IMG/VR virus record: IMGVR_UViG_2693429680_000009
Origin: a virus
Lineage: Duplodnaviria; Heunggongvirae; Uroviricota; Caudoviricetes
Length of the DNA: 4,976 nt
Reading direction: 5' to 3' (one strand)
Below are positions 1 through 4,976 of this stretch, piece by piece; position 1 is the stretch's first letter, and each line of letters opens with the position of its first letter. The translations under genes and the position numbers were made by a program. The notes under the pieces are model-generated. The model was not told where the DNA came from. It did no database searches and was given only the letters and a program-made list of their open reading frames with translations.

Positions 1-72
1 GGGAAAAATATCATCAGATGGCTGCTTAAAAAAAGAACAAATGGTAGTGTCCGCTATTGCCAGTACACCTCA
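1..72. repeat. Left copy of a 72-bp perfect terminal inverted repeat (partner at 4905-4976)
   Basis: Reverse complement of 4905-4976 matches 1-72 base for base (checked in 10-nt blocks); identity ends at 73 (g) versus complement of 4904 (t). The left copy holds an ATG at 41 that opens only a 21-codon ORF (41-106). Confidence 0.95.
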
Positions 73-253
73 GGATAGCGGTCATGTGATGCCGGTTTCC
101 CGGTAACTCAGCACCGGTATCTGAGTCAACGTTTTCTCTACTGGGTCATTTCCGATACGCCCTGCCTGCTGACAGGCTTTCATCACATCTGAAAATATAG
201 CACCCTGACTGATACTGTAGTACCTAAGGTTCCAGAAACTGTGATGTATCCGG

Positions 254-280
254 CACAGAAAAGCCCCTCCGGAGAGGGCT
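254..280 (-). terminator. Putative rho-independent terminator (minus strand)
   Basis: Minus-strand imperfect GC-rich hairpin AGCCCTCTCCGGAGGGGCT (core palindrome CTCCGGAG) followed by TTTTCTGTG. Confidence 0.5.
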
Positions 281-476
281 GGAGAGTGGCGCTATGTGCC
301 ATTGCATGATGCCGGGTGCCTCCCGGTGAATTCAGTACCAGCACCTGAATCCGCGATTATCCCATATACCTACTCGCTGATTGCCCCTCCGCACAGGGGG
401 ATTCACCATGCCAGTTTCTTTTAACAAACTCCCCGCAAAACAGACAACTGTCAACCGTCTGAATTGTGAGACATTT

Positions 477-502
477 AAAAAAAAGGCCCGCAAAAGCGAG
501 CC
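477..502 (-). terminator. Rho-independent terminator just 3' of tRNA-Arg (minus strand)
   Basis: Minus-strand hairpin GGCTCGC-TTTT-GCGGGCC (7-bp stem, one mismatch) followed by eight T (plus-strand A-run 477-484). Confidence 0.7.
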
Positions 503-516
503 AGGGAAAATAAGTG

Positions 517-593
517 TGGCGCGTTGTACTGGATTCGAACCAGTGACCGATTGCTTAGAAGGCAATTGCTCTGTCCGGCTGAGCTAACAACGC
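517..593 (-). tRNA. tRNA-Arg (anticodon UCU), 77 nt, CCA encoded
   Basis: Reverse complement GCGTTGTTAGCTCAGCCGGACAGAGCAATTGCCTTCTAAGCAATCGGTCACTGGTTCGAATCCAGTACAACGCGCCA folds as a cloverleaf: acceptor GCGTTGT/ACAACGC, D stem GCTC/GAGC, anticodon stem ATTGC/GCAAT, loop CTTCTAA (anticodon TCT), T stem ACTGG/CCAGT, T loop TTCGAAT, discriminator G, CCA. Confidence 0.9.
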
Positions 594-693
594 TGAATAC
601 CGATAATGGACCGCCATCGGGGACCCGCCCCCGCACCAACAACCCTGTTATCGTGTCGTCTGCTCTTCCTGATAAGCTAATGGCGGTTTGTGA

Positions 694-769
694 TGGTGGC
701 CCTTGCTGGATTTGAACCAGCGACCTGGCGATTATGAGTCGCTCGCTCTCACCACTGAGCTAAAGGGCC
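694..769 (-). tRNA. tRNA with anticodon CAU, most likely tRNA-Ile2 (lysidine type), otherwise elongator tRNA-Met; 76 nt, CCA encoded
   Basis: Reverse complement GGCCCTTTAGCTCAGTGGTGAGAGCGAGCGACTCATAATCGCCAGGTCGCTGGTTCAAATCCAGCAAGGGCCACCA: acceptor GGCCCTT/AAGGGCC, D stem GCTC/GAGC, anticodon stem AGCGA/TCGCC (one A-C mismatch), anticodon CAT, T stem GCTGG/CCAGC, T loop TTCAAAT. Resembles my recollection of E. coli ileX more than initiator or elongator Met; Ile versus Met cannot be settled from sequence alone. Confidence 0.85.
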
Positions 770-805
770 GGGAGCAGAATAATAACGGTCCGTAATTAAT
801 TCCGC

Positions 806-832
806 AATAAAAAACCCGCTCGGCGGCGGGTT
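806..832 (-). terminator. tR'-like rho-independent terminator between the Q-type gene and the tRNAs
   Basis: Minus-strand hairpin AACCCGCCGCCGAGCGGGTT (stem CCCGC/GCGGG) followed by TTTTTTATT, about 40-65 nt downstream of the predicted late promoter. Confidence 0.65.
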
Positions 833-871
833 GTAGAAACTCTTCTAACGTCAGGCATAAAACGCCCATAG

Positions 872-1726
872 TTATGACGAATTTACCACAGATTCCGGAA
901 AAATCAACCTAGTTACCTTTTTTAACTGCCGCTCAGCCCATGCTTCTTCAATATCAAACCGAGTCACCAGCGCATCATAGAATTTCTTAACTGTTTTTTC
1001 CCATGACGCGCGTGTTATCTGGTTTGTCACCTCGCATATAGCATTAAATGCCTCCGTTGATGGTAGTCTTTCATAGCCACGACCACCACAACGCTGGCAG
1101 TCTCTGATAACAGGCATACCACGTTTTACCGACTCTTCACGATGAATGGCGACACCACGCCCACGGCAATCCTTACAGGCGGTGGAAACCTCACCCTTTC
1201 CGCCACACTCCGGACAGGCAACTTTTACCACCTCCCTGACTTTTTTCCATTCTTCCCAGTAAGACGGATACACACCTTTCGTACACTTTGCCCATACCGG
1301 CGGCTTACCATCCGGATACTGGATCTTGTTTGTAAAAACCTCGCTTTCAATAAATTTTTTTCCGTGACAGCAGGGGCACTGTTTTTTGCTCGCCGCGCTA
1401 CGGGCATAATCTTCAAACGCATACGAAGCCATAATACGCATCACTGCCGGTTTTATTTCTGCCGGGAGTTTTCTTAACGCCGCCACGCGATCACACCGAC
1501 TGAGTGCATATTCTGTCAGCAATTCTGTTGCCCGCTCTCTGTCATTCATACTAATGCCCATTTTCCCAAGGAACGCAGAAACCCCCATCTCAGCCCGATT
1601 CTGTGTCATGCCCTGCGCGGCCATCACATCAGTGATACTCAGCGCATCTTTCGACGTTGAGGCCGATGCATCAGTCAGGCCGGGGGATTTTGGGGAGTAG
1701 TATTTCGGTAAATCTTCCAGTTTCAT
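872..1726 (-). CDS. Q-type late-gene antitermination protein (284 aa, multiple CxxC zinc-finger-like motifs)
   Basis: Long ORF with CPCC, CPEC...CKDC and CQRC motifs. Sits directly downstream of rusA (ATGA overlap at 1723-1726) and directly upstream of a promoter/terminator pair and tRNA genes, the canonical lambdoid Q position. Family call is by context and recollection, not a search. Confidence 0.7.
   Translation of the reverse strand: MKLEDLPKYYSPKSPGLTDASASTSKDALSITDVMAAQGMTQNRAEMGVSAFLGKMGISMNDRERATELLTEYALSRCDRVAALRKLPAEIKPAVMRIMASYAFEDYARSAASKKQCPCCHGKKFIESEVFTNKIQYPDGKPPVWAKCTKGVYPSYWEEWKKVREVVKVACPECGGKGEVSTACKDCRGRGVAIHREESVKRGMPVIRDCQRCGGRGYERLPSTEAFNAICEVTNQITRASWEKTVKKFYDALVTRFDIEEAWAERQLKKVTRLIFPESVVNSS
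880..907 (-). promoter_or_regulatory. Putative late promoter (pR'-like) embedded in the last codons of the Q-type gene
   Basis: Minus strand: TTGATT (-35, plus 902-907), 16-bp spacer ending TGG (extended -10 TG), TAAATT (-10, plus 880-885). Predicted start near 873, reading toward the terminator at 806-832 and the tRNAs. Confidence 0.45.
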
Positions 1727-2103
1727 TTTTTGACCTGCCCTTCAAGCATTATGGGATAAATCTTCACCCCCAGACGTCCACCAGATACTGGCTGAGCACG
1801 AACGATATTGATTTCATCAAACTGCTCATCGTCCATTAGCAACCCCGCATGCGTCAGCGCATCCAGCGGCGCTTTCAGAATATTGTCCAGGTCACGGCGG
1901 CGCTTATCCGGTGGTTCTGCAATAATTTTTATTGCCAACCTTCCGGACAGGCTTAATTTCAGCCGCTGCTGGCGAACAATAAGCGCCACTGCCCGGCGAT
2001 AACGCTCCCCGGCTTTTGATACAAAATATGTGCTGCCACGACGACGCCAGTAAGTGTTCACCGTCGGCGGGTAAGGTAAAACAAATTCTATGCGCTCGGT
2101 CAT
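1723..2103 (-). CDS. rusA: RusA-family Holliday junction resolvase (126 aa)
   Basis: Protein contains PDKRRRDLDNILKAPLDALTHAGLLMDDEQ and VLPYPPTVNTYWRRRG, matching the RusA acidic catalytic core as I recall it from E. coli RusA. Start abuts the upstream stop (TAAATG at 2101-2106). Confidence 0.9.
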   Translation of the reverse strand: MTERIEFVLPYPPTVNTYWRRRGSTYFVSKAGERYRRAVALIVRQQRLKLSLSGRLAIKIIAEPPDKRRRDLDNILKAPLDALTHAGLLMDDEQFDEINIVRAQPVSGGRLGVKIYPIMLEGQVKK

Positions 2104-3162
2104 TTATGCTTTCCACTTCAGAACACCCGAATTTCTCGCGTGCATTAAAAAACGAATCAGCAACAACAGCTGACTGCCGTGTTTCTCTTCAAAATCTTTT
2201 ACTCCGGCATGTAGTTCGTTACGGCATTTACGGCATAACGGAATAACAAACAAATCATCAGCCTTTGTTCCCATCCCTCCCAGTCCATGACCAATGATGT
2301 GATGCGGATCATCTGCCTGATTGCCACACGTCATGCATTTCTGCGTTTTTACCCAGCGCGTGTATACAGGCATCTCTTCCCGTTGTGATTTCTGGCGCTG
2401 GAGATACTGAGCCGGTGACTCCGGATCAACGGCAATGCTGACCACCGTCTTTTCCTGTGGTGGGTTCTGTTGCTGGTGGACGTGAGGCAGTAACGCAATA
2501 TTTTTTGTGCGCTGCTTCAGTATGCTGGTGGCTGTCTGCTCTCCCGGTATGATGTCGCTTTCACTGTACACAGAGCGAATTTTTTCCGCACGCAACCCCA
2601 GCGAACGACGTAATACCGCTTCCGGTAGCGCGTCCGCCACCTGATTGCGGACCGCCCACCAGGATAATTCAGCCAGAGATAATTCACGCTCCTGCGTACC
2701 GCTTATTGCGTGACCGATGACGTCAATCATCCATGCTGACAGGTTTTGATGAGCAAGTTGCTCGAGTGATTCGGATGTCTGGTCACGCAGCTGGTTGTCG
2801 CAGTGCCAGCACAACACCATTGCGCCGGTACCATAACGGTGAATGACGGTTTCGCTGTGATGATAATCGCCGTGTGGCCACTGGCAGGATTTAATATGGC
2901 GCAACAGCCAGTCAGACAATGCACCAGCACCACCAGCAGCACGAATCACCCGTGCGTTACTGAAAAACGGCAGCAATGTTTTGTCTTCCACCAGCGGCTG
3001 GCGAGCGGCAGGAACGACCCCGGACGGCAGATTACGCATGCTTTTTGGTTCCGGCTCCACCAGTATTCTGCCGTTATGGAATGCTGACATTGATTCACGG
3101 CCTGGCTTAACGATAACCAGACCGAGTTCCGGTACCAGAACAGGTCGAAGTAATACCCGCAC
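2104..3162 (-). CDS. DUF968-family prophage protein (YdfU-like) with C-terminal HNH-like motif, 352 aa
   Basis: Full-length ORF in the position YdfU-type genes occupy before rusA/Q. C-terminal CMTCG...PHHIIGHGLGG...LCRKCRNELH has HNH-like CxxC...HH...CxxC...H spacing. Start is uncertain: GTG at 3162 sits only 4 nt from a GGAGG; internal ATGs at codons 25 and 42 lack a good RBS. Confidence 0.72.
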   Translation of the reverse strand: MRVLLRPVLVPELGLVIVKPGRESMSAFHNGRILVEPEPKSMRNLPSGVVPAARQPLVEDKTLLPFFSNARVIRAAGGAGALSDWLLRHIKSCQWPHGDYHHSETVIHRYGTGAMVLCWHCDNQLRDQTSESLEQLAHQNLSAWMIDVIGHAISGTQERELSLAELSWWAVRNQVADALPEAVLRRSLGLRAEKIRSVYSESDIIPGEQTATSILKQRTKNIALLPHVHQQQNPPQEKTVVSIAVDPESPAQYLQRQKSQREEMPVYTRWVKTQKCMTCGNQADDPHHIIGHGLGGMGTKADDLFVIPLCRKCRNELHAGVKDFEEKHGSQLLLLIRFLMHARNSGVLKWKA

Positions 3163-3237
3163 ATTACCTCCAGATCCGTTGCTGGAATGTGCGGGACGGA
3201 CGCGTTGGCCGTTCGGAGTAAGGGAGCCTGACGGAGA

Positions 3238-3519
3238 TTATCCAGTGACGGTAGTCGAGGCTAAGGGCTTTTTTAACCTCGCATCCGCGCCTGCGGTAAC
3301 ACTGAATGAGCCATTCGGCCTGTTCTTCAGTGCATGGGGGATGCTGGTACCAATCAGATTTAAATGCGTGAGAGCGCCGCCCGTGCCTGCTGGCAAAGAC
3401 GGCTGAATTATCAGAATTGTGTAGTCTGGAAGGCAGTGGCTGACAATAGCGCCATTCTCAACGCGCACAGTATAGAGGCCATCTTCACTAAAAATTTCAC
3501 GTAATTCTTCGATTTTCAT
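3238..3519 (-). CDS. Small hypothetical protein (93 aa from the ATG at 3519; the track calls a TTG one codon upstream), in the rem position of Qin-like prophages
   Basis: ORF with RBS GGAAGG 9 nt upstream of the ATG; lies between the hok terminator and the DUF968 gene. No recognisable motif. Confidence 0.45.
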   Translation of the reverse strand: MKIEELREIFSEDGLYTVRVENGAIVSHCLPDYTILIIQPSLPAGTGGALTHLNLIGTSIPHALKNRPNGSFSVTAGADARLKKPLASTTVTG

Positions 3520-3601
3520 CAACAGAATCCTTCCAGATAAATAGCACTCCCCTGTTCGGGGTCCATCCCTCTTCTCCCTGCGCGCTACTTAAGTATTTTT
3601 G

Positions 3602-3631
3602 ATTCTATTCCGGCACCATCTAAAACTTCAA
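3602..3631 (-). promoter_or_regulatory. Putative sigma70 promoter for the small-ORF/DUF968/rusA/Q operon
   Basis: Minus strand TTGAAG (-35, plus 3626-3631), 18-bp spacer, TAGAAT (-10, plus 3602-3607), immediately after the hok terminator and about 85 nt upstream of the ATG at 3519. Confidence 0.3.
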
Positions 3632-3639
3632 ACGCGTTG

Positions 3640-3671
3640 AAAATAAAAACAAAAACCCGCCGAAGCGGGTT
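3640..3671 (-). terminator. Rho-independent terminator of the hok transcript
   Basis: Minus-strand hairpin AACCCGC-TTCG-GCGGGTT (stem CCCGC/GCGGG, tetraloop UUCG) followed by TTTTGTTTTTATTTT. Confidence 0.8.
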
Positions 3672-3739
3672 AAGTGTGGGTGCATTGAGGATGCCTGACC
3701 CATCAGAGGTGGCGAGGGATTTCTCCCCCGCCTGGTCTC

Positions 3740-3895
3740 TTACTCCTCAGGTTCGTAAGCTGTGAAGACAGCGACCTCCGTCTGGCCGGTTCGAATTCGT
3801 ACCTCGCAGAGGTCTTTCCTCGTTACCAGTGCCGTCACTATGACGGTTAAACAGATGACGATCAGGGCGATTAACATCGCCTTTTGCTGCTTCAT
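3740..3895 (-). CDS. hokD: Hok/Gef-family type I toxin (51 aa), HokD/RelF-like
   Basis: Translation MKQQKAMLIALIVICLTVIVTALVTRKDLCEVRIRTGQTEVAVFTAYEPEE: single transmembrane helix and conserved Hok C-terminal region; matches HokD/RelF as I recall it. RBS AAGGAG 7 nt upstream of the ATG at 3895. Confidence 0.9.
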   Translation of the reverse strand: MKQQKAMLIALIVICLTVIVTALVTRKDLCEVRIRTGQTEVAVFTAYEPEE

Positions 3896-3952
3896 AGCCT
3901 GCTTCTCCTTGCCTTTCGGCACGTAAGAGGCTAACCTAGATTTGCCGTTCAT
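3740..3952 (-). CDS. mok-like leader reading frame (70 codons), in-frame N-terminal extension of hok
   Basis: ATG at 3952 preceded by GAGG; the frame runs through the hok start. The 19-codon extension MNGKSRLASYVPKGKEKQA resembles the layout of chromosomal mok/hok pairs as I recall them. Confidence 0.55.
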   Translation of the reverse strand: MNGKSRLASYVPKGKEKQAMKQQKAMLIALIVICLTVIVTALVTRKDLCEVRIRTGQTEVAVFTAYEPEE

Positions 3953-4030
3953 AGATTGAGCCTCAGATTAATGTTAAGCGTCTTGCCGGACGCGTAATGT
4001 TAACTGGGGCTTTTCTCTATCTGCCTTTTG
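3940..4030 (+). ncRNA. Expected Sok-like antisense RNA region (not resolved)
   Basis: Inferred from hok/sok architecture only: the antisense regulator should be on the plus strand opposite the mok start. The best plus-strand promoter-like match is weak (TTGCCT 3909-3914, TAACCT 3932-3937) and no clean plus-strand terminator was found; a hairpin GCGTC/GACGC lies at 3976-3993. Confidence 0.2.
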
Positions 4031-4071
4031 GTGTTCATGCCTGAGACAGATAGCCTCAAGCACCCGCTGCA

Positions 4072-4099
4072 ATTCTACTTAACTCTCCTTTTCCCGCAA
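4072..4099 (-). promoter_or_regulatory. Putative hok mRNA promoter
   Basis: Minus strand TTGCGG (-35, plus 4094-4099), 16-bp spacer, TAGAAT (-10, plus 4072-4077). Predicted 5' end GGGUGCUUGAGGC near 4065 is complementary to the transcript 3' region (plus 3678-3690), as expected for hok mRNAs. Confidence 0.55.
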
Positions 4100-4186
4100 A
4101 CCGTTTTTATCCCCAGCGGCAAATCGAATACACCACCAGCGCCACCGCCATCGCAATTCCTACCGTTGTTAATGCTTCAGGCCAGG

Positions 4187-4531
4187 TCATCGTAAAATAT
4201 CCTCCACGCTTATCAGTCCGTTCCGCTCCAGATAACTCATCGCCTTATCCGGTAATTTGCAGTCTGGCTTCGCTTTCCTCAGTTGCCAGGTTAACTGCTT
4301 TACCAGCATGGTTAACTCATCGACCAGACGCTGATATCCCACTGGTTTGTATTCATGCAATTTACCGGCTGGCTCTGCTGCCAGCGATACCAGTGCGATT
4401 TCCAGAACAGCAATATCCATCTTATATGTGCGGATGATGTCATGGTCGATTGTGCCCGGTATGCACAGTCTCTGTGCTTCAATAGTCTCCTCTGCGTGAG
4501 CTATTAACTGCTCTCTGGTAAAAGTCGTCAT
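4187..4531 (-). CDS. Hypothetical protein, 114 aa, partial paralog of the upstream 55-aa ORF
   Basis: ORF from the track. Its ATG (4529-4531) overlaps the stop of the upstream 55-aa ORF (ATGA). Shares N-terminal MTTFTRE and a central [10 protein letters not shown] motif with that ORF. Confidence 0.55.
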
Positions 4532-4695
4532 GCCGTAGCCCCTTCTTGATATTTTTCAAACCAGAACACAACCGGCTCTGCTTCCAGCGATGCCAGCGCA
4601 ATCCGTGCCAGTTCCATTTGTTCACCACGGGTAAGCCCGTTTTCAAGCGGGTTTTTAATGAACAATTCAATACGTTCTTTGGTAATAGTGGTCAT
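4528..4695 (-). CDS. Hypothetical small protein, 55 aa, absent from the ORF track ([55 protein letters not shown])
   Basis: Hand-translated codon by codon. RBS AAGGAG 6 nt upstream of the ATG at 4693-4695; stop TGA at 4528-4530 overlaps the start of the 114-aa ORF. Confidence 0.5.
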
Positions 4696-4705
4696 GTGTT
4701 ACTCC

Positions 4706-4936
4706 TTAACCCGCAGTGCTTTCAACTGATGAGGGGAACAAAATCTTTTCATCAAACCCTGCATTCATATCATGAACAGCAACACACCAATCCATCGACG
4801 AACGATTATCAAGAGCCTCCATGATTTCATCCATGCGGCGTAGGTCATACAGGTAAATGCTTTTATCGCCAATGGTGTAAAAGCCAATTTTTTTCGGTGA
4901 TGGATGAGGTGTACTGGCAATAGCGGACACTACCAT
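4706..4936 (-). CDS. Hypothetical ORF, 76 aa, whose start codon and first 10 codons lie inside the right inverted repeat
   Basis: ORF from the track. No convincing RBS before the ATG at 4936 or the internal ATGs; its stop sits immediately upstream of the 55-aa ORF's RBS. May be a fragment or have a different true start. Confidence 0.35.
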   Translation of the reverse strand: MVVSAIASTPHPSPKKIGFYTIGDKSIYLYDLRRMDEIMEALDNRSSMDWCVAVHDMNAGFDEKILFPSSVESTAG

Positions 4937-4976
4937 TTGTTCTTTTTTTAAGCAGCCATCTGATGATATTTTTCCC
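4905..4976. repeat. Right copy of the 72-bp perfect terminal inverted repeat
   Basis: Exact reverse complement of 1-72. Confidence 0.95.

Follow-up and report, generated by a model that had tools for sequence, protein, structure and literature searches.

We analysed a window of 4,976 nucleotides (nt), that is the whole stretch of phage DNA taken from IMG/VR virus record IMGVR_UViG_2693429680_000009, in which a pair of tRNA genes, ileZ and argO, follows the gene for a Q antiterminator. All the credible genes of the window are on the minus strand, and the window is therefore read here from high to low coordinates. In this direction the Q gene (872-1726, 284 amino acids (aa); Pfam Antiterm/Q PF03589, E = 1.8e-53) is followed by ileZ, a tRNA gene with a CAU anticodon (694-769), by the decayed tRNA-Arg(UCG) gene ψargN (607-686), by argO, encoding tRNA-Arg(UCU) (517-593), by an empty cargo slot (474-505) and by a small RNA (sRNA) gene of the STnc100 family (251-440), all on the minus strand; one end of the insertion sequence IS600 closes the window (1-72, plus strand). 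We considered this arrangement, with a probability of about 85%, as the late-region tRNA module of a 933W/φP27-type lambdoid phage, held by a defective Shigella sonnei prophage that IS600 interrupts. The ileZ/(argN)/argO module of Stx-type lambdoid phages is already known, and the window has its φP27-like two-tRNA form. The gene names ileZ, argN and argO follow GenBank annotations.

Both tRNA genes were called by ARAGORN and were significant with the Rfam tRNA model (72.5 bits for ileZ and 70.1 bits for argO, E about 1e-14 to 1e-15), and both are complete, with CCA ends. Together with the Pfam match of Q, these calls bear out, far above what chance would give, a tRNA pair downstream of Q, as an earlier reading of the same DNA (hereafter, the sequence-only reading) had placed it. 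That reading had further proposed that the CAU tRNA would read AUA if modified to lysidine and that the UCU tRNA reads AGA, and the comparison with annotated genes agrees with it on both identities. Precisely, ileZ is identical over 76/76 positions to the gene annotated as ileZ (tRNA-Ile) in the Stx2a phage AP012536.1 and also to that of E. coli prophages, and identical copies are labelled tRNA-Ile by PGAP; argO, with the anticodon UCU (AGA codon), is identical over 77/77 positions to its namesake in that phage and in E. coli ATCC 11775.

The CAU tRNA was also compared with the two E. coli K-12 genes of interest, and it matches ileX (tRNA-Ile CAU, lysidine-dependent) at 68/76 positions and the elongator gene metT at 54/78. 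The anticodon loop (CUCAUAA) is the same as that of ileX, and the acceptor stem (GGCCCUU...AAGGGCC) gives the pairs C4-G69 and C5-G68, as in ileX, whereas metT has U4 and A5. These two pairs reportedly let TilS tell tRNA-Ile2 from tRNA-Met (Ikeuchi et al. 2005). The pair G1-C72 rules out an initiator tRNA. Judged by these features, ileZ is of the tRNA-Ile2 (lysidine) type and would read AUA. The label "Met" given by ARAGORN reflects only the unmodified anticodon, and we rejected the tRNA-Met identity for this gene.

The gap of 100 nt between the two tRNA genes (594-693) holds a third tRNA gene, argN, in a decayed state, as became clear from the alignment to intact argN (UCG). In ψargN the stems of the acceptor, D and T arms survive; a 7-bp hairpin closed by a 3-nt loop stands where the anticodon arm should be, and the T-loop counts 6 nt, with TTC missing. 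Neither ARAGORN nor Rfam (even with E up to 1) called it as a tRNA, and we rejected ψargN as an unusual functional tRNA, given the missing 7-nt anticodon loop, the defective T-loop and a folding z-score of just -1.3. Of 5426 complete E. coli genomes, 1851 have this variant, with an identity of at least 99% in 1048 records; it is also present in the Stx2e phage φP27 (NC_003356.1), where only ileZ and argO are annotated. Three phage tRNA genes were described in 933W, VT2-Sakai and others, and two in φP27 (PMC4631060). With two intact genes rather than three, the window falls outside the ileZ-argN-argO form of the module and matches the φP27 subtype.

Upstream of ileZ, the gene order and the signals are those of a lambdoid late operon: Q, a tR'-like terminator and the tRNA genes are on the same strand, and an esterase and a holin gene are found beyond IS600 in S. 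sonnei chromosomes. The Q protein of the window corresponds to a 273-aa form extended by 11 residues, because an 8-bp deletion, as seen against the S. sonnei chromosome CP151357.1, took out the normal stop codon. The deleted stretch (within 872-910) is one copy of a short AGGTAAC-like duplication directly upstream of the -35 element of a candidate late promoter. This candidate PR'-like promoter, found by motif reading, overlaps the 3' end of Q (868-907, minus strand) and consists of TTGATT (907-902), a spacer of 16 nt, TAAATT (885-880) and then the -10-like AACTAT (873-868), at the position of which CP151357.1 has AACGAT. The element resembles lambda PR', with its TAAATT -10 box and its AACGAT pause element.

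The tR'-like intrinsic terminator lies 3' of Q (806-832, minus strand, with the stem at 813-832 followed by a T-run) and came from the hairpin scan. The minus strand has terminator-like hairpins with T-runs at 832-813, 502-485 and 280-262, and the scan gave 5 sites in all, as compared with 1.2 expected from shuffled sequences. In a lysogen, the transcript from PR' to tR' is predicted to measure about 70 nt (within window positions 806-907), and it is presumably analogous to the StxS RNA of Stx2 phages. Just upstream of ileZ we read from the sequence a second candidate promoter, of the sigma-70 type (779-807, minus strand; TTGCGG, 17 nt, TATTAT), which did not reach the cut-off used in the promoter scan. 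This block is conserved upstream of ileZ whether Q or a methylase gene lies upstream, and it could give expression independent of Q. A Trp_leader match at 806-912 and other matches in 1-950 were far under the Rfam gathering scores, and we judged them as due to chance.

The position of the tRNA genes bears on another explanation, according to which they are what is left of a site of prophage integration (attB/attP inside a tRNA gene). A preprint (10.64898/2026.05.13.724894) reads tRNA matches near Pas/STnc100 loci as integration hot spots, and this speaks for such an origin. The genes of the window, though, are complete and internal to the prophage, with Q on one side and the lysis genes on the other; the phage records AP012536.1 and NC_003356.1 have them annotated at this same position, and prophage sequence continues on both sides. 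We considered the integration-site origin as extremely unlikely. The same preprint found no unambiguous tRNA matches near Pas/STnc100 loci in bacteriophage genomes. Contrary to it, the two phage records just named carry annotated genes of the ileZ/argN/argO cluster, which sits by stx and STnc100.

Downstream of argO, the cargo slot was delimited by mapping with BLAST the inserts of related prophages. By local BLAST, the segment with stx2AB of a Stx2a phage (L016, 1332 nt) falls between window positions 473 and 476, and a segment of 642 nt with a DUF3927 gene replaces positions 482-504 in four related loci (L007, L013, L019 and L020) and in many E. coli and S. sonnei copies. In the window nothing occupies the stx site, the sole content of the slot (474-505) is the argO terminator hairpin (485-502), and the gap from argO to STnc100 measures 76 nt. 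The slot is likewise empty, with gaps of 75-79 nt, in E. coli ATCC 11775, TUM10008 and PS2Canimalfeces12 and in complete S. sonnei chromosomes. These alignments make the 30 nt that surround the argO terminator a variable site for cargo, with three or more states (empty, DUF3927 and stx2AB among them).

The sequence-only reading had stated that in Stx-type phages a tRNA cluster at this position sits just upstream of the toxin genes, and this is what we saw in the Stx2a phage and in φP27. It had also noticed that here terminators follow the tRNA genes and that no cargo gene comes after them; the hairpins at 502-485 and 280-262 account for the terminators, and none of the open reading frames (ORFs) in 73-516 had a Pfam match, hence no protein-coding cargo lies within the window. 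Two ORFs that could have been hidden cargo, at 183-344 (minus strand) and 296-424 (plus strand), were rejected, as they had no Pfam match and overlap the sRNA gene. Unlike a Stx-converting prophage, the window has no stxA/stxB between argO and STnc100 or the lysis genes. The apparent lack of following genes is an effect of the window edge: in complete S. sonnei chromosomes a second copy of STnc100, a SASA esterase gene and a holin gene lie beyond IS600. Prophages of this kind usually have nothing in the stx slot (loci L001-L003 and L023), and we did not count its emptiness as evidence of loss.

The DNA between the slot and IS600, which had been described as about 400 bp of noncoding sequence, holds the STnc100-family sRNA gene (251-440, minus strand), with its own terminator hairpin at 262-280. 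The match to the Rfam family RF02076 is full-length (model positions 1-206) and reaches 123.6 bits (E = 1e-27), the gathering score being 47. The family is related to the PasD prophage sRNA. In the Stx2a phage STnc100 starts 75 nt after stx2B; its occurrence downstream of stx2 was also reported elsewhere, and homologues were detected in vesicles from E. coli strains that produce Shiga toxin (PMC12370729). Two tandem copies are common in the relatives, while the window has one and the second lies beyond IS600. A further "STnc100" match at 24-212 (Rfam, 21.8 bits) was rejected, being far under the gathering score and running into IS600 sequence. In E. coli genomes PGAP annotates antisense to STnc100 a partial "hypothetical protein", which is probably spurious.

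The window ends in a perfect terminal inverted repeat of 72 nt (1-72 against 4905-4976), of which both arms are identical over 72/72 positions to the right inverted repeat (IRR), that is the transposase-distal end, of an IS600 copy annotated in E. coli CFSAN004176. An IS600 transposase gene (in PGAP, "IS3-like element IS600 family transposase") adjoins the sequence of the left arm in loci L004, L007, L013 and L023; an ORF with an rve domain adjoins this end in L004, L007 and L023, and the terminal sequence starts with TG. Thus, as read from these ends, two IS600 copies in inverted orientation, with their IRR ends pointing inward, bracket a prophage fragment of 4832 bp. The body of the first copy extends to the left of the window (its IRR end at 1-72 is on the plus strand) and that of the second to the right (IRR end at 4905-4976, minus strand). 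The inverted repeat is unrelated to the function of the tRNA module.

At the left copy, position 73-75 of the window holds one copy of a 3-bp target duplication (GGA, or TCC on the minus strand). In the S. sonnei chromosome CP151357.1 (L023) TCC is found on both sides of this IS600, and another S. sonnei chromosome, CP032523.1 (L024), has the uninterrupted site ...GCTATCCTTCCAGG...; because of the duplication and of this empty site, the left IS600 is, by sequence, a simple insertion with a 3-bp duplication and without rearrangement. The right copy has no target duplication (TTT against TCC), and beyond this copy the DUF977 gene lies inverted with respect to the normal prophage order (L023, 8769-10032), which suggests an inversion or deletion associated with IS600 in the early region, far from the tRNA genes. 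We rejected a duplicative inversion as deduced from the GGA/TCC match of the flanks of the two IRR ends, since this match involves 3 nt only and the left copy has a direct target duplication.

These data bear on the fate of the cargo. The sequence-only reading had considered the cargo site as empty, lost, or displaced by a rearrangement that the repeat would mark. The empty site stood, with the stx2AB position 473/476 vacant; loss or displacement was not supported, given the simple insertion on the left and the ordinary genes that follow beyond position 1 essentially without rearrangement. More in general, one could suppose that stx or some other cargo was once present and was removed or moved by an IS600-associated rearrangement. 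In fact, the right IS600 without a target duplication and the inverted DUF977 gene indicate that an IS600-linked rearrangement has occurred in this prophage, and a patch at 593-980 (see below) testifies to recombination around the tRNA genes. Against this, the TCC duplication of the left IS600 is intact and there is an allele without the insertion, the genes for the esterase and the holin have kept their place behind this IS600, and the interval of 76 nt from argO to STnc100 is colinear, at 95-99% identity, with that of IS-free, stx-free E. coli prophages. We considered a former cargo removed in this way as very unlikely.

The assignment to S. sonnei rests on two exact protein matches: both the exact Q protein of the window and the exact 76-aa ORF at its right end (4706-4936) are named from Shigella sonnei. 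Complete S. sonnei chromosomes such as CP151357.1 have, in order, IS600, the same early genes, Q, a 65-aa ORF, a methylase gene, ileZ, argN, argO and STnc100, and then IS600, the second STnc100, a 617-aa SASA esterase (nanS-p-like) and the holin. No complete E. coli genome had the left junction of IS600 with the prophage, the homology ending at window position 71/72. Likewise, neither the left nor the right junction had an exact-pattern match in the species-representative contig collection, which is evidently without this S. sonnei lineage.

Compared with the complete locus of CP151357.1, the window is 100% identical in 1-592 and 981-4976 and differs in 593-980, where it has ψargN in place of argN, small changes upstream of ileZ, and 3 single-nucleotide polymorphisms plus the 8-bp deletion in the 3' end of Q; it also lacks the 1.5-kb segment with the 65-aa ORF and the methylase gene. 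A draft contig of S. sonnei (L007) is informative about this difference: positions 525-4976 of the window are identical to its "module 1", and the methylase module lies downstream in the same contig. Taking out of L007 all that separates its two argO copies therefore yields the window, and the crossover falls in the 68 nt that both copies share (525-592). In a further draft contig (L013) the two modules meet elsewhere, near 440-472. The exact 284-aa Q was found in 385 blocks of the collection, none of which is on a contig longer than 84 kb. Each half of the join is borne out by other genomes: the adjacency of Q, ileZ, ψargN and argO occurs in complete E. coli genomes, and that of argO, STnc100 and IS600 in complete S. 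sonnei chromosomes.

The argO gene, which is perfectly conserved, and STnc100 may serve as homology arms for swapping cargo cassettes (empty, DUF3927 or stx2) by recombination and, if this is true, the crossover inside argO in the window may be one such event. The same crossover is a warning that short-read contigs running through repeated modules of this kind may be chimeric.

To relate the module to its possible use, we counted the ATA and AGA codons, which per 1000 codons amount to 13.9 and 7.4 in the genes of the window, 12.6 and 13.8 in the late genes of an intact relative (L019), and 36.8 and 14.7 in stx2AB, as compared with 2.3 and 1.0 in 34 core genes of K-12. AUA and AGA are hence about 6-7 times enriched in prophage genes with respect to the K-12 core genes, in line with the earlier suggestion that the two tRNAs match rare enterobacterial codons.

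From the sequence and from the known model of lambda late transcription, we propose the following mechanism. RNA polymerase starting at PR' would normally halt at tR'. Once Q is made after induction, a terminator-resistant polymerase would pass tR' and continue over the tRNA genes, the argO terminator and the cargo slot to STnc100 and the lysis genes, and the weak sigma-70-like promoter just upstream of ileZ may add some expression independent of Q. RNase P and 3' processing would then free the tRNAs, and the host TilS would turn C34 of the ileZ product into lysidine, so that it reads AUA, while the argO product reads AGA. Both codons are rare in the host and are several-fold more frequent in the genes of the phage and of its cargo.

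Phage tRNAs can evade defences that target tRNAs, and the main role of the pair could then be counter-defence, with the phage copies replacing host tRNA-Arg and tRNA-Ile cut during infection by anticodon nucleases (colicin D-like or PrrC-like). The module is kept at 100% identity across very different phage backgrounds, which would fit this role. On the other hand, the two anticodons are precisely those for the two rarest codons, which are enriched 6-7 fold in phage and cargo genes; the anticodon loop of ileZ is unchanged with respect to host ileX (CUCAUAA), and tRNA-Ile2 is not known to be a nuclease target. Even though lambdoid phages with these tRNA genes are not measurably better codon-adapted (PMC4631060), a further point in favour of counter-defence, we considered it as quite unlikely to be the main role, and we kept the reading of the pair as a late-operon module for AUA and AGA codons.

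Some observations weigh against this preferred reading. Lambdoid phages with these tRNAs are neither better nor worse adapted in codon usage than those without (PMC4631060), hence any gain in translation is of conjectural size. IS600 insertions, the lack of a target duplication at the right copy and the inverted DUF977 gene mark the prophage as defective, and its Q-driven late expression may be lost in this host. Both the PR' and the ileZ promoter were read by eye, the latter being under the scan threshold. Finally, the adjacency of the 284-aa Q, the two tRNA genes, STnc100 and IS600 could be a real homologous deletion or a join made by the assembly over repeats.

A possibility of low probability is that the intact ileZ/argO pair, and possibly STnc100, has come to serve the host, and that this use has preserved it in an S. 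sonnei prophage that is itself dead and riddled with IS600. If true, such use would be a Q-independent boost, from the promoter-like element upstream of ileZ, of AT-rich virulence-plasmid genes rich in AUA and AGA.

The remaining genes of the window, all on the minus strand, lie upstream of Q. Three small early ORFs (4706-4936, 4528-4695 and 4187-4531) come first. The first of them, the 76-aa ORF already named, is chimeric, as its first 10 codons derive from the IS600 end and the rest from a truncated early gene of 87 aa; UniProt nevertheless lists it as "Prophage protein" (Q3Z0Y9_SHISS), and it occurred on 832 contigs. There follow a type I toxin-antitoxin locus of the hokD/sok kind, with a Hok family ORF (3740-3952; Pfam HOK_GEF, E = 3e-23) and the sok RNA (3890-4065; Rfam, 112 bits), then a 94-aa ORF (3238-3522), a DUF968 protein (2104-3162) and RusA (1723-2103), which precedes Q. 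The hokD/sok locus (3740-4065) is thus complete within the IS600-bracketed fragment. In E. coli 602354 (L019, 10275-13668) the early region has instead the anti-phage system IteA/IteS, with iteS/iteA between a 92-aa ORF and the DUF977 gene, whereas relatives have hok/sok next to the 92-aa ORF upstream of DUF968; this position is another variable cargo slot of the prophage family.

As regards its significance, the finding matters little beyond correct annotation. The gains are that the CAT tRNA should be called tRNA-Ile2 (ileZ) and not tRNA-Met, that the spacer between the two tRNA genes is a pseudo-tRNA, that the "noncoding" DNA is an sRNA gene and that two IS600 ends make up the inverted repeat. 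The map of the stx slot, from the argO terminator to STnc100, helps to judge whether a lambdoid prophage ever carried, or could acquire, a toxin cassette, and for the same judgement it is useful that the slot has three or more states and that highly conserved RNA genes lie on either side of it.

The comparison with known systems places the window among the tRNA-bearing late regions of lambdoid prophages. Synteny in E. coli prophages, the Stx2a phage and S. sonnei chromosomes gives the common order Q, (methylase), ileZ, argN, argO, (stx), STnc100, nanS-p and holin. In the E. coli relatives, precisely, Q is followed by the 65-aa ORF and DNA methylase where present, by ileZ, argN, argO and STnc100 (often as two tandem copies), by IraM, DUF1737 or the SASA esterase nanS-p, and then by holin, lysozyme and Rz.

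For the single elements, IS600 of the IS3 family agrees with the window in the 72/72 identity of the IRR end and, at the left copy, in the 3-bp duplication typical of the family, the difference being that of either copy no more than the last 72 nt fall within the window. K-12 ileX is a chromosomal gene and ileZ is phage-borne; they differ by eight substitutions, with A27/C43 in ileZ and G27/U43 in ileX. The STnc100/PasD family shares with the window the full-length match, the terminator, and the position relative to the tRNA genes and the esterase gene seen in other prophages.

Among whole late regions, that of the Stx2a phage (Stx2a_1447, AP012536.1; 933W/Sakai type) has ileZ and argO 100% identical to those of the window, in the same orientation, with the same terminator after argO, the cluster downstream of Q in the late operon and STnc100 further downstream. 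It differs in that argN is intact, that the methylase and other genes lie between Q and the tRNA genes and that stx2AB is between argO and STnc100, whereas in the window argN is decayed, Q adjoins the tRNA genes and the stx slot is empty. The Stx2e phage φP27 (NC_003356.1) has the same two tRNA genes with a gap of about 100 nt and the replaced argN anticodon arm; there, stx2e comes directly after argO, a methylase gene is upstream of ileZ, and the region scanned had no STnc100 match. The E. coli 602354 prophage (CP025847.1) shares with the window Q followed directly by ileZ, ψargN and argO, at 97.7% identity over window positions 505-900, with tRNA-Ile and tRNA-Arg called by PGAP and with no toxin, and differs from it by the 642-nt DUF3927 segment in the slot, a 273-aa Q, the absence of IS600 and the intact lysis genes.

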